Shown here: in pieces, positions 16,971 to 30,822 of the stretch | Layout: each line of letters begins with the position of its first letter | Position numbering within the stretch: position 1 is the stretch's first letter | Source of the DNA: Ignavibacteriales bacterium | GTDB lineage: Bacteria > Bacteroidota > Ignavibacteria > Ignavibacteriales > SURF-24 | NCBI GenBank assembly: GCA_036261625.1 | Contig: DATAKL010000034.1 | Coordinates: forward strand, 125,018 to 189,017 | DNA length: 64,000 nt | Direction: 5' to 3' | Notes under the pieces: model-generated | Seen by the model: the letters and a program-made list of their open reading frames with translations, nothing else | Told to the model about the DNA's origin: nothing | The model's database searches: none | Made by a program: the position numbers and the translations under genes

Positions 16971-17027
16971 ATGCAGCTTTAATCATTTGATTTACATATT
17001 TGGCGTTTTACTTTTAGAGGGGGGGCT

Positions 17028-17852
17028 ATGGAATTTTGGAGTGCTTTTCTGATAGGACTGGCAGGAAGCCTGCATTGTGCCGGCATGTGCGGGGCCTTGG
17101 TGCTTGCTCTTCCACAGCAGGACAAATTCAGTTTTATTTCCGGAAGAGCGCTTTATAACGCGGGCAGAATTGTGTCTTATGTATTTTTGGGTCTTCTCTT
17201 TGGAGCCTTCGGCAGCACGGCTTCACTTTTCGGCCTGCAGCAGCATATGTCAGTTCTGCTTGGAGTAATAATAATTCTTCTTGTAATTGTGCCGCGGCGG
17301 TACAGAAACAAAGTGAACAGTCTTGCGCTCTTTGCAGATTACAAAAAAAAGCTGCAGAGCTATATGGGAAAAATCTTAAAAAAGAATTCTTCAATGTCTT
17401 TGTTGTTCCTGGGCATGCTGAACGGACTTCTTCCCTGCGGAATGGTTTACATGGCGCTTGCCGGAGCAGTAACTTCATTTGGTCTTAAAAGCGCAATGGC
17501 TTATATGGCACTCTTCGGTCTTGGCACACTGCCGATGATGTTTACAGTATCTCTTATGGGGCGCTACGCCGTCGGCTATGGGCTGCGTAGAAATCTGGGG
17601 CGCGTGGTTCCTCTTCTTGCATTTATGCTTGGTGCTGTTTTTATCCTTCGGGGAATGAACCTGGGGATACCTTACCTGAGTCCAAAACTTCCAATGAAAA
17701 TGAATCACATGCAAATGGATCATACGGGAATGCAGAAGGCCGGCATAAAACTTTCTCAGGCAAATAAATCCGGAATGATACCGGGTGTGAACATGTCAAC
17801 AACGGACAGCCGCAGTTCAAATAGCTGCATTAAAGACAATTGCTGCAAGTAA
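17028..17852 (+). CDS. TauE/SafE-like (COG2836-type) membrane protein with an HCxGMCG motif and a Met/His-rich tail
   Basis: It has GSLHCAGMCGALV at the N-terminus and several TM helices. The C-terminal tail reads PMKMNHMQMDHTGMQ...CIKDNCCK. Genes of this kind commonly close cco clusters in Bacteroidota. Confidence 0.7.
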   Translation: MEFWSAFLIGLAGSLHCAGMCGALVLALPQQDKFSFISGRALYNAGRIVSYVFLGLLFGAFGSTASLFGLQQHMSVLLGVIIILLVIVPRRYRNKVNSLALFADYKKKLQSYMGKILKKNSSMSLLFLGMLNGLLPCGMVYMALAGAVTSFGLKSAMAYMALFGLGTLPMMFTVSLMGRYAVGYGLRRNLGRVVPLLAFMLGAVFILRGMNLGIPYLSPKLPMKMNHMQMDHTGMQKAGIKLSQANKSGMIPGVNMSTTDSRSSNSCIKDNCCK

Positions 17853-17928
17853 TACTTCAAAAATATCGCCTGGAACTACAAGCCTGTCAAAGAGCTTAAT
17901 TTCTGCTTAGAATGAAGATGTAATTATC

Positions 17929-17956
17929 TTGACATTTTTGGCAAAAAAAATATATT
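17929..17956 (+). promoter_or_regulatory. Candidate sigma70-type promoter (TTGACA-16 bp-TATATT)
   Basis: TTGACA lies at 17929-17934 and TATATT at 17951-17956, ~40 bp upstream of the DUF892 gene start. Confidence 0.5.
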
Positions 17957-17994
17957 AAAATGAGAAACGCGTAATAAAATATGGAGGAATGAAC

Positions 17995-18486
17995 ATGCAA
18001 GTCGATTCGCTGAAAAAACTTTATATGGATGAATTAAGAGATCTGGTAAGTTCAGAAAGCCAAATCATTGAAGCCATGCCGAAGATGATCCAGTCTGCAT
18101 CTTCAAAAGAACTGAAGAATGCTTTTAGTGAGCATCTGGATGTAACCAAGCGTCAGCTGGACAGGCTCAAAGAAATCTTCCGCAATATGAGTGAATCACC
18201 GGAAGGTAAAACCTGTATTGGAATGCAGGGAATAATAAAGGAAGGTCAGCAGATGTTAAGTGAGGCTACTGATCCAGAGGTGAAAGATGCCGGCTTAATT
18301 GCCGCCGCACAGAGAATTGAACACTATGAAATTGCGGTCTACGGAGTAGTGAGAACTTATGCTGAAATACTGGGAGATGAAGACTCGAGAGACCTCCTGC
18401 AGAATACACTGGATGAGGAAAAACAAACGGATAAAAAATTAACTGAACTGGCTGTTAACAGTATAAATGTAGAGGCAAGAAAATAA
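17995..18486 (+). CDS. Ferritin-like DUF892 protein (YciE/YciF family), paralog 1
   Basis: YciE/F-like blocks are present (LYMDELRDLVSSESQ, AAQRIEHYEIAVYG). GGAGG at 17983-17987 is well spaced for ATG 17995, and this start aligns the N-terminus with paralog 2. Confidence 0.85.
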   Translation: MQVDSLKKLYMDELRDLVSSESQIIEAMPKMIQSASSKELKNAFSEHLDVTKRQLDRLKEIFRNMSESPEGKTCIGMQGIIKEGQQMLSEATDPEVKDAGLIAAAQRIEHYEIAVYGVVRTYAEILGDEDSRDLLQNTLDEEKQTDKKLTELAVNSINVEARK

Positions 18487-18523
18487 AAAAGCCTGCCCTG
18501 CATTACTCCGGTAAAGTTTAATT

Positions 18524-18557
18524 TCAGGAGGCCGCCTGCTTCAGGAGGCCGCCTGCT
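18524..18557. repeat. Perfect 17-bp tandem duplication (TCAGGAGGCCGCCTGCT x2)
   Basis: Read directly. It is nested inside a long-range inverted repeat, GCCTGCCCTGCA (18491-18502) and TGCAGGGCAGAC (18593-18604), which matches at 11 of 12 positions. Confidence 0.9.
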
Positions 18558-18765
18558 TTGAATGATGAAGCTCCCGGAAAAAATGTTTCAATTGCAGGGC
18601 AGACCTTAAAAACAGCCGGGCTTCCGGGTATCGCCAATTATAGTCATGGATAGTCAGGTACTCATTTGTTCAAATATTTTCTTCAGTCTTCTTTATAACT
18701 AATGCAGCTGGTTCATCCTGGCCGGAGAATTATTCTAAAAACAAAAATGCTTTGGAGGTTGAGAA

Positions 18766-19176
18766 ATGATGCGGGTAGAAAATACTCAAATTGTGAGTGT
18801 AAGTTATTTTCTTACATTTGTCTACTGTCGGTACCTGTTAGAACTGATGGCCGGAAATGATCCGGACGATGATGAAATGGATGACGACGAAGAGATCATG
18901 CAGCCGGATATGGATGAGTTTACGGATGATGAGGACTTTGAAGATGAGGAGGATGATCTTTTGGACGAGGGCCTGGAAGATGAGGCTTTTGACGAGGAGG
19001 AAGAAGACGTTGATGATGAGGATGAAGACCTTGATGATGAGGATGAAGACCTTGATGATGACGATGAAGATTTTGATGAAGATGAAGACTTTGACGAGGA
19101 TGAAATCGAGGGCGACTTCGATATAGATGAAGATGAGGACGAGGATGATTTTGAAGATGATGAGGATTTGAAATAA
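18766..19176 (+). CDS. Hyperacidic low-complexity protein (136 aa)
   Basis: GGAGG at 18754-18758 precedes ATG 18766. The last 105 residues contain 77 D/E and a single basic residue, the terminal K. An alternative start is ATG 18847 (MAGNDPDD). Confidence 0.65.
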   Translation: MMRVENTQIVSVSYFLTFVYCRYLLELMAGNDPDDDEMDDDEEIMQPDMDEFTDDEDFEDEEDDLLDEGLEDEAFDEEEEDVDDEDEDLDDEDEDLDDDDEDFDEDEDFDEDEIEGDFDIDEDEDEDDFEDDEDLK

Positions 19177-19195
19177 AGACAAGGAAGGAATTGTT

Positions 19196-19696
19196 ATGGC
19201 AATAAAATCAATGCACGACCTTTTGGTGGATTCAGTAAAGGATATATACTATGCTGAAAAGCAGGTGTTAAAATCAATGCCGAGGATGATAAAGAAATTA
19301 TCATCCAATAACGTAAAAAAGGCATTTGAACAGCATTCGAAGGAAACCGAGAAACAGATTGCAAGACTTGAAAAGGTTTTCAGAGAGCTCAATATGGCGC
19401 CCAAGGCAAAGAAGTGCCCTGCTATCGACGGTATAATTCAGGAAGGCAGGGAAATAATGGATGAGATCGATAATCCCAATATAATGGATGCTGCAATTAT
19501 TGCCGCCGCACAGAAGATTGAACACTACGAGATTACTTCTTACGGCACAGCCAGAACTTTCGCAAATCATCTCGGGATGAACAAACTGGCCGGCCTGCTG
19601 CAGAATACACTTGATGAAGAGTATGCAACGGACGACAAGCTGACACAGATGGCGCAGAGCGAAGTCAACGTTGAAGCTGTGGAGGCGAGCTACTAG
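19196..19696 (+). CDS. Ferritin-like DUF892 protein (YciE/YciF family), paralog 2
   Basis: It shows the same architecture and motifs as 17995-18486 (AAQKIEHYEITSYG, LDEEYATDDKLT). Confidence 0.85.
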   Translation: MAIKSMHDLLVDSVKDIYYAEKQVLKSMPRMIKKLSSNNVKKAFEQHSKETEKQIARLEKVFRELNMAPKAKKCPAIDGIIQEGREIMDEIDNPNIMDAAIIAAAQKIEHYEITSYGTARTFANHLGMNKLAGLLQNTLDEEYATDDKLTQMAQSEVNVEAVEASY

Positions 19697-19753
19697 CCTG
19701 GTCCTTTGCCGAAAAGAAATTTCGGAATACCCATTTAGTGACTCCTATAATAT

Positions 19754-19806
19754 CTGCTTCTAATTGAATTTGTTGCAACAGATTTAATTAGAAGCAGTTC
19801 TTTTTG
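19754..19806 (+). terminator. Rho-independent terminator
   Basis: CTGCTTCTAATT...AATTAGAAGCAG stem followed by TTCTTTTT. Confidence 0.8.
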
Positions 19807-20091
19807 TGCAGCTCTTTTTCAGTGAAGCATTGTAAAATCAATATAGAAAAAAGGAAAGCTTTTTTGTACAGCCTCACAGAGCACTCTAAATGAAACGTAT
19901 TTATCAGTAGATTTTTATAGCTTTATTTATTTATAATAATTAAACGGCGCATTCTGCCCTGTAAACAGAAGGCATCCGGAAAATTTCATTTCGGGCGGCA
20001 GTGCAGCTTATTATCAGCTGATAACTATCAGCAGTTTTATCGTAAGTCTCATAGCTGAAGGGGAAACTATTTTGTCTGGAAGGAGAATTTA

Positions 20092-23000
20092 ATGGCCGCC
20101 GATGGGAAGTTCCTGGATGATAATCCATTGTGGTATAAAGATGGAATTATTTATCAGGTGCACGTAAAAGCATTCCGCGACAGCAATAACGACGGAATCG
20201 GAGATTTCCGTGGGCTACTGGAAAAACTGGATTATATTGAAAGCCTTGGAGTTACAACTATATGGCTGCTTCCATTTTATCCGTCTCCCCTTAGAGACGA
20301 CGGTTATGATATAGCAGATTACTACAATATTCATCCCCAGTACGGGATACTGGAGGATTTTAAGGACTTCCTCAAAGAATCGCACCGGCGCGGCATCAGG
20401 GTCATTACTGAGCTCGTCTTAAATCACACTTCAGACCAGCACAGATGGTTCCAGCTCTCCAGGATCAGCAAACCGGGTTCTCTGCAGAGGGATTATTACG
20501 TCTGGAGCGACACGCCTGAAAAGTACAAGGATGCCAGAATTATATTCGGCGACTTTGAAACTTCGAACTGGTCGTGGGATCCCGTAGCCAGGGCGTACTA
20601 CTGGCACCGCTTCTATGCGCATCAGCCGGATCTTAATTTCGATAATCCTCACGTCCATAAGGCTCTTTTCCGCGTAGTGGATTTCTGGTTTGACATGGGT
20701 GTAGACGGACTCAGGCTGGATGCCGTGCCCTACCTCTATGAGCGTGAAGGTACGGACTGTGAAAACCTTCCGGAGACGCACGAGTTCTTAAAGAGTCTTA
20801 ATGCATACGTGAAAAAGAGATTTAAGAACAGGATGCTTTTGGCCGAGGCCAACCAGTGGCCCGAAGATGCGGTGGAATATTTCGGAGGCGGAGATGAATG
20901 CCAGATGGCATTCCATTTCCCGCTCATGCCGAGGCTGTTCATGTCGCTTCAGATGGAAGACCGTTTTCCCATAATAGATATTCTGGAGCAGACCCCGGCC
21001 ATTCCAGTGACCTGCCAATGGGCAATGTTCCTTAGAAACCATGATGAACTGACACTTGAAATGGTTACAGACGAGGAACGCGACTATATGTACAGATTCT
21101 ATGCAAAGGATAACCGAGCCAGAATCAATCTCGGCATCAGGCGCCGCCTGGCTCCCCTGGTTGATAATAACCGCAGAAAGATTGAACTGCTTAATATTCT
21201 TCTTTTTTCATTTCCCGGAACACCCATAATCTATTATGGCGACGAGATTGGAATGGGGGACAATTACTACCTGGGCGACCGCAATGGAGTAAGAACGCCA
21301 ATGCAGTGGTCGCCTGACAGGAATGCGGGGTTTTCGGATGCCAATCCGCAGAAGCTTTTCCTGCCCGTAATAATTGATCCAGAATACCACTACGAAGCTG
21401 TAAATGTGGAGGTGCAGGAAAGGAGTTCTTCAAGCCTGCTCTGGTGGATGAAAAGGGCCATTGCGGTCAGGAAAAGCCATAAGGCCTTCGGGCGGGGAAC
21501 GCTTGAATTTCTTTCGCCGGCAAATCCCAAGGTGCTTGCTTTCGTAAGGAAATATGAGTCGGAAGCGATCCTTGTAGTTGTAAACCTTTCCAGGTTCCCT
21601 CAGGTGGCCGAACTGGATATGACAAAGTATAAGGGCTTCAGCCCTGTCGAGGCCTTCAGCAGAAACAAATTCCCCATAATCGGGGAAACCTCCTACATGC
21701 TTACATTAAATCCCTATGACTATTACTGGTTTATTCTTGAACAGGAAGAGGCTCTGGTTCCTACCGAGGGGAAAAAGATCCCTGAAATCAGCGTAAAAGG
21801 AAGCTGGAAAAATATTCTGAAAGGGGAGATAAGGGCGATCTTTGAGGATACGATCTTAAACCACTATGTAAAGCAGTGTGAGTGGTTTGATGGTGACCCC
21901 TTAAGAGTCCAGAATGTAAAGATCGAAGATGAAATACATATTCCGGATACTTCAGGTAACGAGGTGCTGCTTATAGTAAAAGTCAGCTACCTGGACAGGG
22001 TTCCGGAGCTTTATCTTCTTCCTGTCTCGGCAGGAGGTGATGAAAATGCAAGGAAGATATCGCAGTCATTCCCGAATGCCGCCATTGCATGTCTTAATAC
22101 TGATGGGCAGCTTCATACACTTTACGACGGCATTTATGATGATACATTCCGCCAGGAATTCCTGAAGATGCTCTTACGCAGGCGCAACATTCAAGGTGAG
22201 TCCGGCGGAGAACTCAAGGCGAGCATTGAAAAAAGGATAAAGAGCATTTTCTCGGGCGGCAGGATCTATACATCCTCGCAGGTGCAGAGAATGGATAAAA
22301 GAAATATAAATCTTCTCTATGGCGAGAGCCTGACCGTAAAGCTCTACAGAAAGCTCGAAGAAGGGGTAAACCCCGGGGTTGAAATACTAAAGCTTTTGAC
22401 TGAGAGGACAGGCTTTGATAATATTCCTCCCTACGGAGGAGCAATAATGTATTTCAGGAACAATCTTCCGCCGGTAACCCTGGGAGTGCTTAAGGAGTTT
22501 GTGGTATACCAGAGCGACGGATACTCTTACATAATTGACGTTGTCAAGAAGCATTTTGATAATGTGCTGGCCTTACAGAGTGATAAGGCAGGGGGACTTC
22601 CCGTAATATCTTCCTTTCTCTCGGAACTCGCCCAGCTGAAAGCATCGCCCTATTTTAGTGAGATCGTCGAGAGGATCAATATCGAAATGGTCAGCCTCCT
22701 TGGAAAAAGAACTGGGGAAATGCACCTGGCACTTTATTCATTGATGGATGATCCGGCATTCAGCCCTGAGGCATTTTCGATGCTTTATCAGAGGTCCATT
22801 TACCAGTCGGTAAGGAGCCTCCTGAGGAGCACATACAGGCTCTTAAACAGAAATATACCATTTATGCCTGAAGATCTGAAGAAAGAGGCAAATGGGCTTC
22901 TTGCGCTTGAACAGCCGCTTTTGTCCTTTGTATCAAAAATACTGGCCGCAAAACTTCCGGCTAAGAAGATCCGTATTCACGGCGATTACCATTTAGGTCA

Positions 23001-23460
23001 GGTGCTCTTTACAGGAAAGGACTTTGTGATAACCAATTTCGAGGGGCCGGAAAACCAGTCCGTAAGTGAAAGAAAGCTTAAACGCTCCCCGCTAAGGGAT
23101 GCCGCAGGAATGATCTGGTCTTTCCATTACGCCGCTTATACAGCACTGCTTGAGTATAAATCCTCGCGCTCAGAGGACATCTCGCTCCTGGAATCTTTTG
23201 CCGAGCAGTGGTGGCTCTGGATGGGAAGTGCCTTCATGCAGTCCTACTATGACACAGTACAGCAGACAGGGCTTCTGCCGCCGGGGAAGGATGATCTGGA
23301 ATATATGCTGCACGTCTATCTGCTGGAGAAAAAGCTGAGTGAACTTCATTATGCTCTGTCAAAACACCTGGACGAAGCCTACATCCCGATAAAGGGGATC
23401 GAATATTTCTCCAGGTTTATTCTGAAGGAAGGGAGACATGAAAACTCCCTGAAAACCTAA
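20092..23460 (+). CDS. treS: Trehalose synthase (maltose alpha-D-glucosyltransferase) fused to maltokinase (TreS-Mak/Pep2)
   Basis: 1122 aa. The N-terminal half is GH13 TreS (WYKDGIIYQVHVKAFRDSNNDGIGDFRG, GVDGLRLDAVPYL, FLRNHDELTLE). The C-terminal kinase-like domain carries IHGDYHLGQVLF. GGAGG precedes the ATG. Confidence 0.9.
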   Translation: MAADGKFLDDNPLWYKDGIIYQVHVKAFRDSNNDGIGDFRGLLEKLDYIESLGVTTIWLLPFYPSPLRDDGYDIADYYNIHPQYGILEDFKDFLKESHRRGIRVITELVLNHTSDQHRWFQLSRISKPGSLQRDYYVWSDTPEKYKDARIIFGDFETSNWSWDPVARAYYWHRFYAHQPDLNFDNPHVHKALFRVVDFWFDMGVDGLRLDAVPYLYEREGTDCENLPETHEFLKSLNAYVKKRFKNRMLLAEANQWPEDAVEYFGGGDECQMAFHFPLMPRLFMSLQMEDRFPIIDILEQTPAIPVTCQWAMFLRNHDELTLEMVTDEERDYMYRFYAKDNRARINLGIRRRLAPLVDNNRRKIELLNILLFSFPGTPIIYYGDEIGMGDNYYLGDRNGVRTPMQWSPDRNAGFSDANPQKLFLPVIIDPEYHYEAVNVEVQERSSSSLLWWMKRAIAVRKSHKAFGRGTLEFLSPANPKVLAFVRKYESEAILVVVNLSRFPQVAELDMTKYKGFSPVEAFSRNKFPIIGETSYMLTLNPYDYYWFILEQEEALVPTEGKKIPEISVKGSWKNILKGEIRAIFEDTILNHYVKQCEWFDGDPLRVQNVKIEDEIHIPDTSGNEVLLIVKVSYLDRVPELYLLPVSAGGDENARKISQSFPNAAIACLNTDGQLHTLYDGIYDDTFRQEFLKMLLRRRNIQGESGGELKASIEKRIKSIFSGGRIYTSSQVQRMDKRNINLLYGESLTVKLYRKLEEGVNPGVEILKLLTERTGFDNIPPYGGAIMYFRNNLPPVTLGVLKEFVVYQSDGYSYIIDVVKKHFDNVLALQSDKAGGLPVISSFLSELAQLKASPYFSEIVERINIEMVSLLGKRTGEMHLALYSLMDDPAFSPEAFSMLYQRSIYQSVRSLLRSTYRLLNRNIPFMPEDLKKEANGLLALEQPLLSFVSKILAAKLPAKKIRIHGDYHLGQVLFTGKDFVITNFEGPENQSVSERKLKRSPLRDAAGMIWSFHYAAYTALLEYKSSRSEDISLLESFAEQWWLWMGSAFMQSYYDTVQQTGLLPPGKDDLEYMLHVYLLEKKLSELHYALSKHLDEAYIPIKGIEYFSRFILKEGRHENSLKT

Positions 23461-23539
23461 GCCATCATGCGGCAGTAAGTTGACGGCGGTAGTTTATTGC
23501 CAGTATAAGTTATTTGTAAGATTTTTTTTTAGGTGGGTT

Positions 23540-25372
23540 ATGAGAATAGGCGCAGACTATTCAGGTTCTGGGAAATGTGAGTTTGTGGTTTGGTCACCAG
23601 TTGCAGAAAAAATGGAAGTTAAAATCCTTGACGGCAAGCAACGGATTATCCCAATGCACAGGGATGAAGAATTCTATTGGAAAGCTGAGGCGGAAAATAT
23701 AAAACCGGGGCAGCATTATTTCTACAGGATCAACGGCGAAACTGACCGCAGCGATCCGGCAAGCAATTCGCAGCCCATGGATGTGCACGGCCCTTCTGAA
23801 ATTATAGACCACAGTGCATATAAATGGACGGATAACGCCTGGCAGGGCATTCCGTTAACAAATTATATTATCTACGAAATGCATATAGGGACTTTTACCC
23901 CTGAGGGAACTTTTGATGCGGCGGCCGGGAGGCTTAACGACCTCAAAACGCTTGGCATTACAGCAGTTGAGATAATGCCAGTTTCCCAGTTTCCGGGAGA
24001 AAGAAACTGGGGATACGACGGGGTTTATCCCTTTGCGGTGCAAAGTTCATACGGCGGTGTAAAAGGACTGAAACATTTTGTAGATGAGTGCCACAGCAAG
24101 GGGCTGGCAGTAGTACTTGACGTGGTCTATAACCATTTCGGTCCTGCCGGCAATTACCTGCACAGCTACGGTCCTTATTTTACTTCAAAATACAGGACTC
24201 CCTGGGGGGATGCTGTTAATTTTGATGAGGAATATAGCGACGGCGTAAGAAATTACTTTATTGAAAATGTCCTCTACTGGTTCAGAAATTTTCATATCGA
24301 CTCGCTCAGGCTGGATGCAGTTCACAGCATGTATGACTTCAGTGCAAAGCATATTCTTGAGGAAATGACGGAGCTGACGGATCACTTCTCAAAGGCAGAA
24401 GGGAAAAAGCATTTCCTAATACTTGAAAGCGACTTGAACGACGTAAGAGTAATCAACCCTCGGGAGATCGGCGGCTACGGCTGCCATGCGCAGTGGAGCG
24501 ACGACTTTCATCACGCACTTCATACCCTTCTTACGGGTGAAAAGTCGGGCTACTACATGGATTTCGGGAAAGTCTCTGATATGGCTAAAGCCCTGAAAGG
24601 AAGCTTTATCTATACGGGGCAGTTTTCCCGTTCGCGCAAAAGAAGGCACGGCAATGATCCCTCCGAAAGGCACACATTTCAGTTTGTTGTCAGCACACAG
24701 AATCACGACCAGATTGGAAACAGGGCTTTTGGTGAAAGGCTCTCAAGCCTTGTCACATTTGAGGCTGCAAAGCTTGCTGCCGGGGTTATGCTCCTCTCAC
24801 CTTACATTCCGATGCTGTTTATGGGGGAGGAGTACGCCGGTGACACGCCGTTCCAGTATTTCGTAAGCCACAATGATCCGGTTTTGGTAAAGGCCGTTCA
24901 GGATGGAAGAAAACAGGAGTTCAAGGCTTTCAAGTGGAAAGACGAGGTCCCCGATCCTCAGAGCGAAGAGACATTTATGAATTCAAAACTGAATTGGAAT
25001 GAAAGACTGTTAGGAAAGCATAAGGTAATGCTCGAATTCTATAAGGAGCTCATAAGGCTTAGAAATACTCTGCCGGCCCTGAAGAATTTCGACAGAAACG
25101 ATATGCAGGTAAGGGAGATTGAGGAAGAGAAGGTGATCTTCTTCCACAGGTGGAAGCAAAAAAATGCTGCTTACATGATAATGAATTTTAACGATATGGA
25201 AGTTGCAGCCTACGTGCCCACGCCGAAGGGCACATGGAAAAAGGTTTTAGATTCAGCTGATGAGAAATGGATGGGCTATGGCTCCCAAATGCCGGAAGTA
25301 TTGGATAAGATGCAGGATGTTACAATTAAAGAATTCAGCTTGGCTCTTTATGAGCTTCAGGTGAAAGGATAA
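23540..25372 (+). CDS. treZ: Malto-oligosyltrehalose trehalohydrolase
   Basis: GH13 blocks are present (VVLDVVYNHFGP, IDSLRLDAVHSM, ILESDLND, VVSTQNHDQIGNR), with an N-terminal E-set-like region. I place the start at ATG 23540 after AGGTGG. The ORF-track start is 23480. Confidence 0.88.
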   Translation: MRIGADYSGSGKCEFVVWSPVAEKMEVKILDGKQRIIPMHRDEEFYWKAEAENIKPGQHYFYRINGETDRSDPASNSQPMDVHGPSEIIDHSAYKWTDNAWQGIPLTNYIIYEMHIGTFTPEGTFDAAAGRLNDLKTLGITAVEIMPVSQFPGERNWGYDGVYPFAVQSSYGGVKGLKHFVDECHSKGLAVVLDVVYNHFGPAGNYLHSYGPYFTSKYRTPWGDAVNFDEEYSDGVRNYFIENVLYWFRNFHIDSLRLDAVHSMYDFSAKHILEEMTELTDHFSKAEGKKHFLILESDLNDVRVINPREIGGYGCHAQWSDDFHHALHTLLTGEKSGYYMDFGKVSDMAKALKGSFIYTGQFSRSRKRRHGNDPSERHTFQFVVSTQNHDQIGNRAFGERLSSLVTFEAAKLAAGVMLLSPYIPMLFMGEEYAGDTPFQYFVSHNDPVLVKAVQDGRKQEFKAFKWKDEVPDPQSEETFMNSKLNWNERLLGKHKVMLEFYKELIRLRNTLPALKNFDRNDMQVREIEEEKVIFFHRWKQKNAAYMIMNFNDMEVAAYVPTPKGTWKKVLDSADEKWMGYGSQMPEVLDKMQDVTIKEFSLALYELQVKG

Positions 25373-25386
25373 TTAAAGGAGAAAGA

Positions 25387-27816
25387 ATGAACAGATACGT
25401 ATGTATTCACGGACACTTTTATCAGCCCCCGAGGGAGAACCCATGGCTGGAGGAAATTGAAGTACAGGATTCGGCCTACCCGTACCGCGACTGGAATGAA
25501 AGAATTACTGCCGAATGCTACAGCCCGAATACGGCTGCCCGCATTCAGGCCGGAGACGGCACGGTTCTGGACATAATTAATAACTATACAAAAATGAGCT
25601 TTAATTTCGGACCCACGCTCTTATCCTGGATGGAGAAACACGCGCCTGACACGTATGAAAGCATTATTCAGGCTGACGTGGAAAGCCGTGAACTTTATTC
25701 CGGACACGGCTCGGCTATTGCACAGGTCTACAATCATATGATTATGCCCCTGGCCAATACGAACGACAAGCGCACGCAGGTAATCTGGGGCATTGCAGAC
25801 TTTAAGTACCGCTTCGGGCGCGATCCTGAAGGGATGTGGCTTGCTGAGACAGCAGTGGATAACGAAACTCTGGATATTCTTGCAGAGTACGGAATCAAGT
25901 TTACAATTTTGGCTCCCAGACAGGCCAAGACAATTAAACCGCTCGATTCGGATGAGTGGACGGACGTCAGTAACGCTTCAATCGATCCCAAAATGGCATA
26001 CCTCTGCAGGCTTCCCTCGGGAAGGACAATTAACCTCTTCTTCTACGACGGCCCCATATCGCAGGAGCTGGCTTTCGGCGACCTGTTAAAAAACGGCGAA
26101 AACCTCGCCAACCGGCTTATCGGCACCTTCAGGGAAGATGACTCCCCCCAGCTGGCAAATATAGCTACTGACGGTGAAACCTACGGCCACCATGCAAAAC
26201 ACGGCGATATGGCACTTGCTTACTGTCTGAGCTTTATTGAAACAAATAACCTCGCCAGGATCACGGTCTACGGCGAGTTTTTGGAGAAATATCCCCCGTC
26301 ACATGAAGTCGAAATTATTGAGGATACATCCTGGAGCTGCATACACGGAATTGAAAGGTGGCGAAGCAACTGCGGCTGTAATACTGGACGCCCGGGCTGG
26401 GGGCAGGAATGGAGAGCCCCATTGAGGGAAGCTCTGGACTGGCTCAGGGACTCGCTTATCGGATTCTTTGAAAAAGGTGTTGCCGGCTTTACGGAGGCAC
26501 CCTGGGAACTCAGAAACGATTATATAGAGGTCATCTTGGACAGAAGTCCCGAGAACCTGGATAAATTCTTCTCCCGTTTTGCTTCAGACAATCTTACAGA
26601 TGAGAAGAAAACAAGAATTCTGAAGTTCCTTGAGATGGAACGCCATGCGCTTTTAATGTACACAAGCTGCGGATGGTTTTTTGACGAGATCTCGGGCATC
26701 GAGACCATTCAGGTTATAATGTACGCCGGGCGTGCAATTCAGCTGGCAAGGGAGCTTGGCGGGCCCGACCTGGAAGGCGAATTTATTCAGCGCCTTGAGA
26801 AAGCTCCGAGCAATATTCCTGAGGTCCAGAATGGCGGACATGCCTATGAAATGTACGTTAAACCCGCCTTTATCGATATGCTCAGGGTTGCAGGCCACTT
26901 TGCCATTAAAGCCCTCTTCGAGGATAAAAAAGAAGAGGAGGGTATAGAAATGTTCAGCTACAGGGTTTCAGATGAACAGTACGAGAAATTTGAAGCAGGC
27001 AGGCAGAAGATGATCATCGGGCGGGCACAGATGCATTCAAACATAACGCTGGAGAATTTCCAGGTCAGCTTTGCGGTTATACATTTTGGCGATCAGACCG
27101 TAAACGGAGGCGTAAGGCAATTTCAGGGAGATGAACCTTTCAATCTGATGAAGGAAGAGCTTAAGGAGGCATTCCAGAGATTGAATGTTGTTGAAATGGT
27201 ACTCCTTCTCGATAAACACTTCGGTACCCATAATTTCACTTTGTGGCACCTCTTTAAGGATGAAAGCCGTAAGGTATTCAACATAATAATGCACAAGACG
27301 CTTGAGGAAATAGAGTTTTCATTCCGCCAGATCTATGAAAACCATTATCCCCTCATGCAGGCCCTTCTGGAGGCAAGACTTCCATTGCCGAAAGCAATTT
27401 CAACAGCAGTGGAGTTTGTGATCAATTCGGATATACTTAAAATCCTGCAAAACAAAGGGCCGATAAACCATGAAGAACTTAAGAGGCTCTCTGACGAGGC
27501 CAGGAAATGGTCCATTGCCATAGACACACAAAGGCTGAGCTATGTGGCTTCCAAAAGGATCAATAAACTGGCGCAGAGACTGGCTGAAAATCCGATGGAT
27601 ACCGGCATTATGAATGAGATGGCAGACAATCTGACCTCACTCCACCGCATTGGACTCGATATGAACCTGTGGAAAGCACAGAATATACTGTTCTATATGG
27701 GGCAGGAGCATCTGCTGCCGATGAGGTCGAAGGCCCGGAAGGGTACCCAGTATGCAAAGAAATGGATGGAAGATTTCAGGAAACTGGAACAGGAAATGCA
27801 GGTAAAGCTGGAGTAA
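25387..27816 (+). CDS. Glycoside hydrolase family 57 protein with a long C-terminal (DUF3536-type) domain
   Basis: GH57 conserved regions can be read directly: HGHFYQPPRENPW, GMWLAETAV (nucleophile Glu region) and ATDGETYGHH (acid/base Asp region). It is 809 aa. Confidence 0.85.
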   Translation: MNRYVCIHGHFYQPPRENPWLEEIEVQDSAYPYRDWNERITAECYSPNTAARIQAGDGTVLDIINNYTKMSFNFGPTLLSWMEKHAPDTYESIIQADVESRELYSGHGSAIAQVYNHMIMPLANTNDKRTQVIWGIADFKYRFGRDPEGMWLAETAVDNETLDILAEYGIKFTILAPRQAKTIKPLDSDEWTDVSNASIDPKMAYLCRLPSGRTINLFFYDGPISQELAFGDLLKNGENLANRLIGTFREDDSPQLANIATDGETYGHHAKHGDMALAYCLSFIETNNLARITVYGEFLEKYPPSHEVEIIEDTSWSCIHGIERWRSNCGCNTGRPGWGQEWRAPLREALDWLRDSLIGFFEKGVAGFTEAPWELRNDYIEVILDRSPENLDKFFSRFASDNLTDEKKTRILKFLEMERHALLMYTSCGWFFDEISGIETIQVIMYAGRAIQLARELGGPDLEGEFIQRLEKAPSNIPEVQNGGHAYEMYVKPAFIDMLRVAGHFAIKALFEDKKEEEGIEMFSYRVSDEQYEKFEAGRQKMIIGRAQMHSNITLENFQVSFAVIHFGDQTVNGGVRQFQGDEPFNLMKEELKEAFQRLNVVEMVLLLDKHFGTHNFTLWHLFKDESRKVFNIIMHKTLEEIEFSFRQIYENHYPLMQALLEARLPLPKAISTAVEFVINSDILKILQNKGPINHEELKRLSDEARKWSIAIDTQRLSYVASKRINKLAQRLAENPMDTGIMNEMADNLTSLHRIGLDMNLWKAQNILFYMGQEHLLPMRSKARKGTQYAKKWMEDFRKLEQEMQVKLE

Positions 27817-28002: not shown

Positions 28003-30822
28003 ATGCATATCCCAAGATCCACCTACCGTCTGCAGATGAATAAAACTTTTACATTTGGTGATGCCGGGAACATTGTCCGCTACCTCTCAGAGCTTGGAGT
28101 CTCCGACATCTATTCATCTCCAATTATGAAGGCTGCAAAGGGCAGTATGCACGGCTATGACGTCGTGGACCCGAACCAGTTTAATCCTGAACTTGGAACA
28201 GAGGAGGATTTTGACAAACTGGTTGAAGAGTATAAAAAGCATAAAATGGGATGGCTGCAGGACGTTGTACCGAACCATATGTCGTATTCCTCTGAAAACC
28301 AGATGATTGTCGACCTTCTGGAGAACGGACCCAACTCGCGCTTCTTTAACTTTTTTGACATCGAATGGAACCATCCGCATGCCAGTGCAAGACAGAGGCT
28401 ATTGGCTCCCTTCCTGGGAAAATATTTCCAGGAAGTGCTGGAGGAGGGGGAACTTCAGTTAAAGTATGATGCCGAGGGCTTCAGCATCTATTACTACGAC
28501 AACCGTTTCCCTCTTAAGATGGAATCATACTCCGACATAATTTCTTTCAGAATGTCAAGTCTGCAGAACCGCCTGGGGAAAAATGACCCCGATGTAATAA
28601 AATTCCTGGCAATCCTTTATATACTGAGATCCCTTCCTTCTTCAGATGAAATGGATGAACGCTATTCGCAGATAAAGTTCGTTAAGGGAATGCTCTATGA
28701 ACTTTACTCGGGCAACGGGGTGATAAGAGAGTTTATTGATGAAAACATGAGGATTTACAACGGAAGAAAGGGAGTCCCGGAGAGTTTCAACCTGATGGAA
28801 AAACTCTTAAGCGAGCAGTACTTCCGCTTTGCATACTGGAAAGTGGCCAACGAAGAGATTAACTACAGGAGATTTTTTAACATTAGCAGCCTTATATCTC
28901 TTAAAATGGAAAATGAGGAGGTGTTCAACCGCGTGCACACCCTGGTCTTAAAGCTAATAGACGAGGGAAAAATTGACGGCATCAGAATTGACCACGTCGA
29001 CGGACTCTACGATCCCACCTCATATCTCAAACGACTGAGGGGCAGGCTTCAGGATAATTATCTTGTGGTGGAGAAGATACTGGAACTCGATGAGGAACTT
29101 CCCACCGAGTGGCCCATTGAGGGTACAACGGGCTATAAGTTTGTAAATTATGTGAACGGCATTTTTGTCAGGAAAGATAACGAGAAAACATTTACTGACA
29201 TATACCACAGGTTCTCCGGCTTTACCACTCATTACGAAAGGGTTGTTGCCGAGAAAAAAAGGCTCATCATTCAGACCCGCATGGCAGGCGAGGTGGAGCG
29301 CCTGGCATTCCTGGTCGAGGCTGTCTCGAGCATAGACCGTTACGGCATAGACATTACGATGCACGGCCTGAAAAGGGCACTTGAGGAGATACTGACTTAC
29401 TTTCCGATATACAGGACTTACATCAATGCGGAGAACTATAGCGAACGGGATAAGAAATACCTCGAAAACCTGTTTAAGAGGCTCTCAAGAATAAACCCCC
29501 GTCTTACACACGAGTTCAATTACATTTGCAACCTCCTCATGCTGAGCTTCCGCGAGCATTTTACAGAAGAGCAGAAAAAAGTAGCGCTGGATTTTGTAAT
29601 GAAGTTCCAGCAGCTTACGGGTCCACTGATGGCAAAGGGCTTTGAAGATACGGCACTTTATGTCTATAACCGGTTAATATCCTTAAACGAGGTTGGGGGA
29701 AATCCGGGGCGTTTTGGAATTTCAAGCGGTGAATTCCATAACTACTGCAGGAGAAGAGCTGGCTTCCGGCCTTATTCAATGAATGCAACTGCAACTCACG
29801 ACACCAAGCGCGGGGAGGATGTAAGGGCAAGGATAAACGTGCTTTCGGAAATACCCGATGAATGGGAGGAAAAAATTAACAGATGGACGAGGCTGAACAC
29901 TCCGCAAAAGGGCACTCTGAACTCAGAAGTAATACCCGACAAAAACGACGAGTATTTCCTTTATCAGACTCTTGTGGGCTCATATCCTTTCGGGCAGGCG
30001 GATGTTCCTACCTACATTGCACGAATAAAGGAATACATTGTAAAAGCGATCCGCGAGGCAAAGGTTCACACGGCCTGGATAAAGCCCGACGAAGAATATG
30101 AACAGGCTTACTCTGACTTTGTGGAAAGAATCCTCACGCCCGCAGAAGGCAATCACTTCCTGATAGATTTTTTGCAGTTCGAAAAAAAAGTTGCCTTCTA
30201 CGGGATGTTTAATTCACTCAGTCAGACACTCATAAAGTTTACCTCTACCGGAGTGCCCGATACTTACCAGGGAACCGAACTCTGGGACCTTTCACTGGTT
30301 GATCCCGATAACCGGCGCCCGGTGGATTTCAGTCTGAGAAAGAAAATGCTCGAGGAGATAAAGAATAACCCGGAGCCTTTGAACTCAGGATATATCAGGG
30401 AGATCCTTAGCTCAATGGAAGACGGAAGGATAAAGATGTACCTCATGCACCAGGCACTAAAGGCAAGAAATGAGAACAGGGAACTTTTTCTGGACGGGGA
30501 GTACATTCCCCTAAGCTCCGGAGGCAGACTTGGAGAGAACATCATTGCGTTTGCAAGAAAGCATAAAGGCAGATGGGCTGTAACGGTTCTTCCGCGCTTT
30601 CTGACGGAAGTTGTAAAGGAGGGGGAGCTTCCACTGGGAGACCTCTGGGGCGATACAATGATCGCTCTGCCCGAAAAGGTCAAGTCCTGGAGAAACGTTT
30701 TTACAGGAGAGGTCCTGAAAAATACGGGGAAATCCCGCCGCGGGGAGGAAGGCAGCCCTGCCATGGCAAAAGATATTTTCACTCATTTCCCGGCTGCACT
30801 GCTTGCAGGAGAAAATACTTAA
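28003..30822 (+). CDS. treY: Malto-oligosyltrehalose synthase
   Basis: 939 aa. It has the TreY-typical N-terminus (STYRLQMNKTFTFGDAGNIVRYLSELGVSDIYSSPI...GSMHGYDV) and the blocks GIRIDHVDGL and ATATHDTKRGEDVRAR. Confidence 0.9.
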   Translation: MHIPRSTYRLQMNKTFTFGDAGNIVRYLSELGVSDIYSSPIMKAAKGSMHGYDVVDPNQFNPELGTEEDFDKLVEEYKKHKMGWLQDVVPNHMSYSSENQMIVDLLENGPNSRFFNFFDIEWNHPHASARQRLLAPFLGKYFQEVLEEGELQLKYDAEGFSIYYYDNRFPLKMESYSDIISFRMSSLQNRLGKNDPDVIKFLAILYILRSLPSSDEMDERYSQIKFVKGMLYELYSGNGVIREFIDENMRIYNGRKGVPESFNLMEKLLSEQYFRFAYWKVANEEINYRRFFNISSLISLKMENEEVFNRVHTLVLKLIDEGKIDGIRIDHVDGLYDPTSYLKRLRGRLQDNYLVVEKILELDEELPTEWPIEGTTGYKFVNYVNGIFVRKDNEKTFTDIYHRFSGFTTHYERVVAEKKRLIIQTRMAGEVERLAFLVEAVSSIDRYGIDITMHGLKRALEEILTYFPIYRTYINAENYSERDKKYLENLFKRLSRINPRLTHEFNYICNLLMLSFREHFTEEQKKVALDFVMKFQQLTGPLMAKGFEDTALYVYNRLISLNEVGGNPGRFGISSGEFHNYCRRRAGFRPYSMNATATHDTKRGEDVRARINVLSEIPDEWEEKINRWTRLNTPQKGTLNSEVIPDKNDEYFLYQTLVGSYPFGQADVPTYIARIKEYIVKAIREAKVHTAWIKPDEEYEQAYSDFVERILTPAEGNHFLIDFLQFEKKVAFYGMFNSLSQTLIKFTSTGVPDTYQGTELWDLSLVDPDNRRPVDFSLRKKMLEEIKNNPEPLNSGYIREILSSMEDGRIKMYLMHQALKARNENRELFLDGEYIPLSSGGRLGENIIAFARKHKGRWAVTVLPRFLTEVVKEGELPLGDLWGDTMIALPEKVKSWRNVFTGEVLKNTGKSRRGEEGSPAMAKDIFTHFPAALLAGENT

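Follow-up and report, generated by a model that had tools for sequence, protein, structure and literature searches.

What is a protein made largely of aspartate and glutamate doing between two ferritin-like genes, and is its reading frame a gene at all? The question is raised by a module in a 64-kb stretch of DNA from an Ignavibacteriales bacterium, the whole of which is called the window here. An earlier note, made from the sequence alone, had described a 136-residue hyperacidic protein encoded between two DUF892 paralogs, and this arrangement is borne out by our analysis. The order of elements is promoter, DUF892-1, spacer, acidic gene, DUF892-2 and terminator, with the trehalose genes downstream:

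17886..17915, + strand: block upstream of the -35 hexamer, AAGAGCTTAATTTCTGCTTAG..., with a direct GCTTA-N6-GCTTA repeat, delimited by sequence conservation
17929..17956, + strand: sigma-70-type promoter TTGACA-16-TATATT, 11/12 consensus positions matched
17995..18486, + strand: DUF892-1, YciF-type ferritin-like protein, 163 aa (PF05974, E = 3.9e-55; PDB 4ERU, YciF, E = 3.9e-36)
18488..18607, + strand: long hairpin directly 3' of the DUF892-1 stop, an inverted repeat with outer stem 18488-18502/18593-18607
18754..18758, + strand: GGAGG, ribosome-binding site for the acidic gene, with 7 nt to the ATG, invariant in six loci
18766-19176, + strand: acidic ORF, 136 aa, with 47 D and 32 E (79 D+E), net charge -76, GRAVY -1.44
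18766..18858, + strand: leader of the acidic protein, 31 residues, non-acidic and with many bulky side chains, predicted helix
18859..19176, + strand: hyperacidic tail, 105 aa plus stop codon, 73% D/E, remainder mostly F/L/I/M/V
18989..19094, + strand: 21-nt (7-aa) tandem repeat array in the tail (TRF: period 21, 5.2 copies, 84% matches)
19196..19696, + strand: DUF892-2, YciF-type ferritin-like protein, 166 aa (PF05974, E = 8.4e-56; PDB 2GYQ/4ERU/2GS4, E ~1e-38)
19718..19806, + strand: 3' block, ~35 nt single-stranded ACCCATTTAGTGACTCCTATAAT followed by a terminator hairpin and T-run (terminator scan)
20092..23460, + strand: TreS fused to a maltokinase-like C-terminus, in the next transcription unit (TIGR02456, 899 bits; cutoff 678)
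23480-25372, + strand: TreZ (739 bits; cutoff 539)
25387-27816, + strand: GH57/DUF3536 protein (NCBIfam/Pfam match)
28003-30822, + strand: TreY (940 bits; cutoff 499)

Organization of the module and its surroundings

The promoter and the strong terminator that had been proposed to bracket the three genes are both present and conserved. The promoter hexamers and their neighbouring bases are invariant in the window and in loci L001, L002, L004, L085 and L081, while the flanks diverge, and the promoter looks like one of the housekeeping sigma-70 type. The block immediately upstream of it is kept in the five closest loci, not in L081, and represents a possible regulator site. At the other end, the terminator has a 20-bp stem (19754-19797) followed by the T-run and is conserved in relatives. 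The 3' block as a whole occurs once in the window and hardly differs between the window, L001, L002, L004 and L081, despite saturated synonymous sites. It matched no Rfam family, and an Rfam scan of positions 17000-21000 returned only sub-threshold chance matches. A role of the 3' block as a trans-acting sRNA was considered and rejected, its best duplex against 45 start regions of the window being no better than 12.5% of shuffled controls.

DUF892-1 and the acidic gene are separated by a spacer of 279 nt (18487-18765) containing a 17-nt tandem duplication at 18523-18556. This spacer and its long hairpin were absent from the earlier description. The first 140 nt have a predicted folding energy of -50.3 kcal/mol, and the hairpin lacks a U-tract. 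Across six loci the spacer is poorly conserved and varies from 139 to 375 nt in length; a strong hairpin nevertheless occupies the same position after DUF892-1 in 6/6 loci, although the hairpin sequences are unrelated. The hairpin may terminate or process the transcript ahead of the acidic gene, and a spacer of this length with a strong hairpin after the first gene makes co-transcription of all three genes uncertain. A search for an internal promoter of the acidic gene found no element common to all six loci.

Downstream, the matches to a TreS-maltokinase fusion and to TreZ and TreY confirm the two routes of trehalose synthesis that had been read from this region, the maltokinase-like part of the fusion scoring 359 bits, below its cutoff of 375. 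A conserved block upstream of treS (19893-19940) is its probable promoter region. In every locus with downstream sequence, including L081, L087 and L090, treS lies 3' of DUF892-2.

The acidic ORF is a conserved gene

Judged by comparison across loci, the acidic ORF is a genuine gene under strong purifying selection. It was found in the window, L001, L002/3, L004, L085/86 and L081-84, with a partial copy in L087, and these loci span 93% to 64% identity in DUF892-2. Absence of the ORF from syntenic relatives had been set as the check on the earlier reading; it is present, under purifying selection, in every syntenic relative with sufficient upstream DNA. The segment from ribosome-binding site to start, TTGGAGGTTnAGA...ATG, does not vary among six diverged loci, nor does the stop codon, and every indel among them is in frame. 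Translation must begin at 18766, as the internal methionine Met28 is not kept in relatives. The stop codon lies 19 nt before the start of DUF892-2, and this junction is conserved. For the acidic tail, dN/dS is 0.04-0.05 at dS >1 (synonymous sites saturated), compared with 0.02-0.05 for the DUF892 genes (0.03-0.05 for DUF892-1 and 0.02-0.03 for DUF892-2); by this measure the tail sequence is conserved as strongly as that of the DUF892 enzymes. No other ORF of the window reaches 55% D/E over 50 aa, and the codon usage of the acidic ORF is unremarkable. An independent gene caller predicted the sense acidic gene on Logan contigs.

It is very improbable that the ORF is no gene but a by-product of GAT/GAA-rich simple repeats, or the mirror of a hydrophobic gene on the minus strand (18838-19182): the D/E codons do yield no stops in one antisense frame, hence a 114-aa antisense ORF, the 21-nt repeat makes up part of the tail, and homologues were not found by HMMER or word-index searches, but the invariant sense signals, the ORF kept intact in six diverged loci, the low dN/dS of the tail and the choice of the gene caller all speak against it. 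The antisense gene itself was rejected, its frame having a stop in L004 and no conserved start.

A leader and a hyperacidic tail

The description of the product as an extreme polyanion holds for the protein overall, but its charge is not uniformly distributed, as the 31-residue leader is non-acidic. The leader is 31-34 residues long in all six orthologs, and a single-sequence AlphaFold2 model places a helix at residues 6-28 (pLDDT 76-85). Its sequence is weakly constrained (dN/dS 0.34-0.80). A Sec signal peptide was dismissed by inspection: the leader has no basic n-region, and its hydrophobic core is broken by charged or polar residues, especially in L081.

In the six orthologs the tail contains 67-73% D/E. 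Bulky hydrophobics account for 19-20 of the 25-31 other residues (about two thirds), and polar residues are very few among these positions. The tail is predicted as coil at a pLDDT of ~58 in a low-confidence, single-sequence AlphaFold2 model. Residues 32-78 and 113-136 are almost invariant, down to the identity of D versus E and every F/L/I/M position, such that conserved motifs at both ends enclose a variable centre; the in-frame indels among relatives map to the repeat array. Conservation this strict points to recognition of a specific kind more than to a sponge or shield without specificity. The bulky residues are spaced more evenly than expected by chance: the largest gap is 8, whereas 5000 permutations gave a mean of 16 (p = 0.0024). 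The periodicity of an amphipathic helix was sought in the tail, but the hydrophobic spacing has no significant helical period (p above 0.18). The acidic protein returned no Pfam or NCBIfam match (Pfam at E up to 0.01), and at the same Pfam threshold no LEA family.

The flanking DUF892 proteins

Both paralogs cover profile positions 2-158 of 159 of PF05974, with scores of 186.7 and 188.9 bits (cutoff 23.7), and are 45% identical to each other. DUF892-1 starts at ATG 17995, with GGAGGA 7 nt upstream, both conserved; the alternative ATG at 17989 was discarded because it is not conserved and too near the ribosome-binding site. DUF892-2 has its own ribosome-binding site. The two genes had been assigned to the YciE/YciF type. 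Their placement in DUF892 and their YciF-like character stand (PDB 4ERU/2GS4, E 1e-36 to 1e-38), but they do not form a YciE and YciF pair, the match to YciE (3OGH) having an E-value of 0.005. In Salmonella YciF, Q54, E113 and the bridging E143 are required for iron binding and ferroxidase activity (bioRxiv 10.1101/2023.01.20.524870). Alignments to 4ERU indicate that equivalents of Q54, E113 (EHYE) and E143 (LDEE) are kept in both paralogs.

With pI values of 4.85 and 5.63, both DUF892 proteins are acidic, and a simple polyanion-polycation complex with the acidic protein is therefore not indicated; an electrostatic partnership was rejected on these grounds. The net charge of DUF892-2 (-4, versus a family median of -12) lies at the less negative end of the family.

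Distribution of the acidic gene

Homologue searches with the acidic protein returned no homologue. A word-index protein search with the full protein and with residues 1-75 found nothing, and phmmer gave 0 matches among 1.84 billion representative proteins. A profile-derived metagenome scan produced 600 pattern matches, none of which was upheld by tblastn, and a degenerate DNA pattern for EEIMxPDMDE found 2 matches in the metagenome collection, both in unrelated proteins. An exact look-up of the six orthologs in the protein collection retrieved none of them, even though a gene caller had predicted some of them on Logan contigs. The databases and filters used here are thus blind to this family, and zero matches are uninformative on its rarity.

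The synteny of DUF892, acidic gene and DUF892, for which a search had been proposed, was found in one Ignavibacteria subclade, but 82 DUF892 loci from other lineages lack the acidic partner. The partner is limited to this subclade and is no general feature of DUF892. A Rosetta-stone fusion was sought among the 120 best DUF892-2 homologues, and none (0/120) carries a long acidic extension; one of them, P0091, has just a brief acidic run, EEEEDDDE, ahead of a basic tail.

Comparison with known systems

The closest parallel is the enterobacterial yciGFE(katN) operon, which is described as sigma-S-dependent in a statement of PMC7705038 that cites Beraud 2010; as an analogy, the comparison made in the earlier note is apt. 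YciF is a ferroxidase induced by osmotic and bile stress, and yciGFE likewise responds to stress, including osmotic stress, in enterobacteria. The two systems share tandem DUF892 paralogs, which in the window may form one unit, together with a small, extremely hydrophilic, non-globular partner, and the metal-site residues of YciF are conserved in the window paralogs. A single conserved promoter precedes the tandem paralogs and a single terminator closes them off, with the hairpin spacer (139-375 nt across the six loci) inside. There are also differences. The partner in the window is a 136-aa polyanion without KGG repeats or Pfam match and with 2.2% Gly, and it lies between the paralogs, whereas YciG comes first. 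Both paralogs are YciF-like instead of YciF plus YciE, and the module contains no katN. Furthermore, the promoter looks housekeeping, and the link to treS/treYZ is lineage-specific. By this analogy, we regard the module as a lineage-specific variant of a yciGFE-type stress module.

The acidic protein was also compared with the shield proteins (Hero, LEA, hydrophilins), with which it shares high charge, hydrophilicity (GRAVY -1.44), predicted disorder and a location near water-stress genes. Its nearly binary composition of D/E and bulky hydrophobics sets it apart from all of these. It has no LEA or other Pfam motif, and its sequence is strongly conserved, whereas Hero proteins lack conserved or common motifs. 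Hydrophilins, following Garay-Arroyo et al. 2000, are reportedly defined by a hydrophilicity index above 1 and a Gly content above 6%. The six orthologs are suitably hydrophilic (GRAVY -1.37 to -1.49), but with 0-4.5% Gly they fall outside strict hydrophilin membership, which had been suggested for the acidic protein.

A second comparison concerns the DE/P sequences of MgtL and intrinsic ribosome destabilisation (IRD), as the acidic ORF is DE/P-rich and lies immediately upstream of another gene. The MgtL leader has 17 residues, with its motif at the N-terminus, and makes no functional protein; in leaders of this type the exit tunnel is still empty when the ribosome decodes the motif. The acidic ORF, in contrast, has 136 codons, and its first acidic run comes after 31-34 residues; the 105-residue acidic tract follows a leader of tunnel length, which predicts suppression of IRD, and ends in conserved C-terminal motifs.

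Other extremely negative small proteins, which possibly bind basic partners, are the eukaryotic prothymosin-alpha, MsyB, RraB and the DNA mimics. The bacterial examples (MsyB, RraB, DNA mimics) are folded and far less acidic. None of the four has a detectable sequence relationship to the acidic protein, and we know of no link between any of them and DUF892 genes. The folded scaffold of a DNA mimic is not apparent in the weak, low-confidence model of the tail.

Possible functions of the acidic protein

Our preferred explanation, to which we give somewhat less than an even chance, is a lineage-specific stress-protection module in which the acidic protein would be a translatable polyanion, acting as a cation buffer or shield beside YciF-like ferroxidases and trehalose. 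One conserved sigma-70-like promoter would drive the first YciF-type gene, and the acidic gene and DUF892-2 would form a tightly linked pair. By the time the ribosome reached the D/E tract, the leader would already occupy the exit tunnel; bulky residues scattered through the tract would aid translation in a similar manner, and the two together would let the ribosome pass a tract that would otherwise cause IRD and aborted translation. The finished protein would be a high-capacity cytoplasmic polyanion beside the two ferroxidases, binding or buffering Fe, Mg, Ca and K and shielding proteins electrostatically from aggregation upon water loss. It would thereby replace the small hydrophilic YciG of enterobacterial yciGFE and work alongside trehalose. 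We infer the stress role from analogy and from the gene neighbourhood.

Several observations are consistent with this explanation. IRD is countered by about 30 preceding residues, whose sequence matters little, and also by bulky residues (bioRxiv 10.1101/2021.02.02.429294); the leader of 31-34 residues matches the length that protects against poly-acidic destabilisation. These rules come from work on E. coli rather than on Ignavibacteria. The argument from bulky residues is weakened by runs of 13-22 residues without a bulky hydrophobic in L001, L002 and L085. A 20-Asp run in the middle of an ORF aborts >50% of translation in vitro (PMC11162784). Highly charged disordered proteins, namely the Hero proteins, shield client proteins from desiccation (PMC7067378).

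Two other readings are unlikely, though each has evidence in its favour. In the first, the tail would be a multivalent acidic-hydrophobic ligand of a basic partner, comparable to prothymosin-alpha, the SSB tip, activation domains or mimics of DNA or polyphosphate. Such a partner might be found among nucleoid proteins, ribosomal proteins, polyamines or regulators, and the acidic protein would then be a regulator or chaperone linked to DUF892 by co-regulation only. The near-invariance of residues 32-78 and 113-136 exceeds what composition alone demands, which argues for such binding, as do the bulky, rarely polar nature of the non-acidic tail positions and the acidity of the DUF892 proteins, which makes them improbable electrostatic partners. 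However, the conserved neighbourhood encodes no basic partner candidate, the centre of the tail tolerates expansion and contraction of the repeat, a coil is predicted for this tail, in contrast to the folded structures of known DNA mimics, and the conserved 19-nt junction points to a partnership with DUF892-2.

That same tight coupling to DUF892-2 favours the second reading, an 'open ferritin', for which we see a similarly small chance. Here the YciF-like proteins would oxidise Fe(II) and the polyanion would hold the Fe(III), giving cage-free iron detoxification; a parallel would be found in the acidic nucleation sites of ferritin L chains and in acidic magnetosome proteins. Carboxylate-rich proteins bind Fe(III) strongly. 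Salmonella YciF binds iron, is active as a ferroxidase and forms oligomers of ~110-120 kDa, and the metal-site residues are kept in both paralogs. Against this, the 82 loci of other lineages without such a partner indicate that DUF892 chemistry needs none, and the neighbourhood contains trehalose and cbb3 oxidase genes instead of iron-uptake or iron-regulation genes.

A cis-acting translational sensor is less probable still. The main role of the ORF would then lie in its hard-to-translate sequence. Where ribosome stability is low, as at low Mg2+, translation would abort in the D/E tract, and high cytoplasmic cations would allow its completion, gating the polyanion and, by coupling, DUF892-2; the gene would in effect be a greatly enlarged MgtL leader. 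Cells use Mg2+-dependent abortion at DE/P sequences for regulation in mgtL and ybeX, and the tail is most conserved in DPDDDEMDDDEEIMQPDMDE, a DE/P-type motif directly after the leader. A sensor would also suit the short distance of merely 19 nt to DUF892-2 and the MgtC-family gene that lies divergently upstream in L001 and L081-83. However, the ~31-aa leader suppresses IRD and so favours productive translation, DUF892-2 carries its own ribosome-binding site, and known IRD leaders are short with an N-terminal motif; neither 105 residues nor conserved motifs at the far C-terminus are needed by a sensor.

Sensing and buffering might also be combined, although we consider this a long shot. The acidic gene would then be a self-limiting cation sensor and buffer, with a D/E tract at the limit of what bacterial ribosomes are able to translate, completed, with DUF892-2 reached, only when water loss raises cytoplasmic Mg2+/K+. 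If this were true, synthesis of the polyanion, along with ferroxidases and trehalose, would coincide with the moment at which a surplus of cations calls for a macromolecular counter-ion, and the gene would be the first natural case among bacteria of a long poly-acidic protein with its translatability serving as the regulatory signal.

Implications

The acidic gene is real and strongly conserved; what it does we infer from its context. Bacteria have been deemed hardly able to translate long poly-acidic tracts, and the E. coli proteome has none (PMC11162784); here such a tract is conserved under strong selection. Its leader of exit-tunnel length, followed by the acidic tail, offers a natural test of the 'length' and 'size' rules of IRD outside E. 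coli. Even known orthologs were missed by the word-index search, by the bias filters of HMMER and by the protein collection itself, and hyperacidic proteins may therefore be under-counted in bacteria. For the DUF892 family, which is widespread and barely characterised, the module supplies a dedicated, co-evolving partner and a fixed neighbourhood of trehalose synthesis.

Organization of the module and its flanking DUF892 genes

The window contains, in order, a first gene of the DUF892 family (PF05974, the YciE/YciF family), a gene for a hyperacidic protein and a second DUF892 gene, followed by trehalose genes.

Features of the module and the downstream genes
17929-17956, promoter TTGACA-16-TATATT
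17989/17995-18486, DUF892-1, whole Pfam DUF892 model, E 3.9e-55
18766-19176, acidic ORF between the DUF892 genes, 136 aa with 47 Asp, 32 Glu and 3 Lys/Arg, net charge -76
19196-19696, DUF892-2, whole Pfam DUF892 model, E 8.4e-56
19754-19797, 20-bp terminator
20092-23460, + strand, TreS fused to a maltokinase-like C-terminal domain
25387-27816, + strand, GH57/DUF3536 protein between treZ and treY

Promoter and terminator both lie where the earlier note has them. Across six loci, namely the window and the relatives' loci L001, L002, L004, L085 and L081, the promoter hexamers and the bases around them do not vary, while the DNA beside them is scrambled; the terminator is conserved to the same degree. 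Just 5' of the -35 hexamer, a block at 17886-17915 (+ strand; AAGAGCTTAATTTCTGCTTAGCCTGAAGA) contains a direct GCTTA-N6-GCTTA repeat with a period of 11 nt. This block, a candidate binding site for an activator or response regulator, is kept in the five closest loci and not in L081.

The spacer 3' of DUF892-1 is 139-375 nt long and poorly conserved. It opens with a strong hairpin in every locus, the hairpin sequences being unrelated and without a clear U-tract, and no promoter-like element preceding the acidic gene is conserved across all six loci. Most simply read, one promoter serves the module, and the hairpin between the cistrons would set the level of gene 1 relative to genes 2 and 3. Alternatives are partial termination or a second, unrecognised promoter, and co-transcription of all three genes is uncertain. 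In the window, this hairpin includes a perfect 17-nt tandem duplication (18523-18556, + strand; two copies of TTCAGGAGGCCGCCTGC) that the relatives do not have. Between the acidic stop codon and DUF892-2 lie 19 conserved nt that hold the ribosome-binding site of DUF892-2; the acidic gene and DUF892-2 are the tight pair of the module.

DUF892-1 and DUF892-2 share 45% identity. The nearest solved structures to both are those of YciF (4ERU, 2GS4, 2GYQ and 7TMV; E 1e-33 to 1e-38), whereas E. coli YciE (3OGH) reaches only E 0.005. The pair described earlier as YciE/YciF-type is therefore better regarded as two YciF-type paralogs. Mutating Q54, E113 or E143 of Salmonella YciF abolishes iron binding and ferroxidase activity (bioRxiv 10.1101/2023.01.20.524870), and the equivalents of all three residues are kept in both paralogs. 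Among the best 120 homologues, P0091, a DUF892 protein of 241 aa, is the sole extended one with an acidic stretch; its C-terminal extension opens with EEEEDDDE, after which comes a basic tail rich in Lys and Ala.

An 85-nt block following the DUF892-2 stop codon (19718-19806, + strand) is made up of TTTCGGAATACCCATTTAGTGACTCCTATAAT, the terminator hairpin and a T-run. It is near-invariant even in L081, where DUF892-2 has 73% identity and synonymous sites are saturated, the remaining intergenic DNA being scrambled. Its single-stranded part holds CUCCU, the complement of which resembles a ribosome-binding site and start codon. A possible identity for the block is a small RNA derived from the 3'UTR, or some other regulatory 3' element. 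It has no Rfam match and a single occurrence in the window, where 45 start regions yielded no significant target.

The acidic ORF is a conserved gene

The window belongs to a genome of Ignavibacteria type. Its closest relatives among public loci share 90-93% protein identity and come from metagenome-assembled genomes labelled mostly as Ignavibacteria or Ignavibacteriales; other phylum labels on two of the four nearest are taken to be binning noise. The absence of the acidic ORF from syntenic relatives had been named beforehand as a refutation. A composition scan of the loci compared turned up a counterpart of the ORF in all four close genomic relatives, always flanked by both DUF892 genes. Orthologs of 137 and 121 aa are present in L085/86 and L081-84 (DUF892-2 identity 91% and 73%), and in L087 (64%) the C-terminal part of the ORF lies upstream and treS downstream. 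treS is again downstream in L090 (57%), a locus that is uninformative on the acidic ORF because its upstream DNA amounts to 98 nt only. An acidic ORF upstream of DUF892-2 is thus seen in relatives as distant as L087. In other lineages, the scan detected none among 76 DUF892 loci, those of Sphingomonas included, and none of six further loci with DUF892-2 homologues of 55% identity or less has an acidic neighbour.

In the DNA alignment, the initiation region TTGGAGGTTnAGA...ATG is invariant, the stop codon is conserved and all indels are in frame. The only alternative start, Met28, is CTG or CTC in relatives, so translation has to include the non-acidic N-terminus. By the Nei-Gojobori method, dS between the window and every relative exceeds 1 (saturated), and the tail dN of 0.06-0.09 corresponds to a dN/dS of 0.04-0.05; the DUF892 genes have values of 0.02-0.05.

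That the ORF is not a gene is the alternative to be weighed here. The protein has no Pfam or NCBIfam match in profile searches, phmmer returned no matches among 1.84 billion representative proteins, and an exact-sequence look-up reported all six orthologs as "not in the collection". Two of these six are, however, already gene-called on Logan contigs, and it seems that these resources filter out, or cannot show, proteins of extremely low complexity. From the sequence comparison and its conserved reading frame, the acidic ORF is a genuine, conserved gene. As far as the tools see, the family is confined to one Ignavibacteria subclade, the same databases and HMMER filters having missed known orthologs. 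In the literature searched, we found no description of a hyperacidic protein associated with DUF892. An antisense ORF (18838-19182) was rejected as a gene, with a stop in L004 and a start that is not conserved; it is an automatic by-product, since D/E codons yield no stops in that frame.

Anatomy of the acidic protein and its translation

In all six orthologs, a leader of 31-34 residues (residues 1-31 in the window) precedes the first acidic run. The leader is rich in bulky residues, is predicted to be helical at residues 6-28 (pLDDT 76-85) and is weakly constrained (dN/dS 0.34-0.80). The tail, modelled as coil, has 87-110 residues, 67-73% of which are D/E. Roughly two thirds of its other residues are F/L/I/M/V/Y (19-20 of 25-31), and these bulky residues are spaced more evenly than expected by chance (maximum gap 8 versus a mean of 16, p = 0.0024), with no significant helical periodicity. 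Two segments of the tail, residues 32-78 (DPDDDEMDDDEEIMQPDMDEFTDDEDFEDEEDDLLDEGLEDEAF...) and 113-136 (EIEGDFDIDEDEDEDDFEDDEDLK), hardly vary, and the centre is a 21-nt tandem array carrying all length variation between orthologs.

In E. coli, stretches of D/E, above all those with Pro among them, make the ribosome unstable while it translates and end translation early (intrinsic ribosome destabilisation, IRD). Two things counter the effect: some 30 residues ahead of the stretch, which span the exit tunnel and can be of largely any sequence, and bulky residues close to the peptidyl-transferase centre (bioRxiv 10.1101/2021.02.02.429294). Even so, 20 consecutive Asp in the middle of an ORF abort over half of translation in vitro, and E. 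coli has no such tracts (PMC11162784). The leader of the acidic protein, of conserved length, weakly conserved sequence and bulky composition, would fill the exit tunnel and counter IRD, and the bulky residues that regularly punctuate the tail could help translation through the 105-residue D/E tract. We infer that the layout of leader and tail matches what the IRD rules predict, which would explain features that no other reading does. A sensor based on IRD is an unlikely alternative.

Genomic neighbourhood

The trehalose genes noted earlier are borne out by NCBIfam equivalog models, with TreS at 899 bits (cutoff 678), TreZ at 739 (539) and TreY at 940 (499). The maltokinase-like domain fused to TreS scores 359 bits, just under the cutoff of 375, and the GH57/DUF3536 protein has no NCBIfam match; the fusion and the GH57/DUF3536 gene suggest that the cluster is also linked to alpha-glucan metabolism. 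About 150 nt 5' of treS, five loci share an invariant intergenic block, TTTATCAGTAGATTTTTAyAGCwTTATTTATTTATAATAATTAAA (19893-19940, + strand), which is unlike the DUF892 promoter and probably serves the trehalose operon as promoter or operator.

Upstream of the module lies a cbb3 oxidase cluster (fused ccoNO, ccoP, FixH and a DsbD_2-family gene). A divergent MgtC-family gene (PF02308) is found just 5' of the DUF892 promoter in L001 (4130-4612, - strand), L081 (4085-4573, - strand), L082 and L083, and so in a close relative as well as a distant one. No MgtC gene occupies this position in the window, L004 or L085; L002 and L003, with little DNA 5' of DUF892-1, gave no match. Its insertion in L001 and L081 makes the module independent of the cbb3 cluster, and provides a soft link to Mg2+ physiology.

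Possible role of the acidic protein

Among known systems, the yciGFE operon of enterobacteria comes closest; the likeness is functional and organisational, and membership is partial. The module likewise has tandem DUF892 genes and a small non-globular hydrophilic partner, but that partner is not of the YciG type. The earlier reading of a putative stress module is supported in part: the acidic gene is real, conserved and set in a stress-type context. Co-transcription of the three genes is uncertain, and the hydrophilin label fails: despite a GRAVY of -1.44, a Gly content of only 2.2% places the protein outside the classical definition.

We favour a role for the acidic protein as a cytoplasmic polyanion that would buffer cations and shield proteins during water loss, working alongside the YciF-like ferroxidases and trehalose. 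This role is favoured because the gene pairing and neighbourhood are conserved, because of the stress biology of YciF and yciGFE, and because highly charged disordered proteins have protective activity (PMC7067378). Two segments of the tail are, however, conserved in their exact sequence, which speaks against a purely non-specific polyanion and would allow for a specific partner. One less likely alternative is a specific binder or mimic, and a partner that holds Fe(III) is another. Both DUF892 proteins are themselves acidic, and a partnership with them would need the hydrophobic residues, the leader helix or bridging metal ions.

The acidic protein would give the DUF892 family, itself little studied, a first dedicated partner. 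It is also a clean example from nature of a poly-acidic protein in a bacterium, apparently with its own inbuilt answer to ribosome destabilisation.
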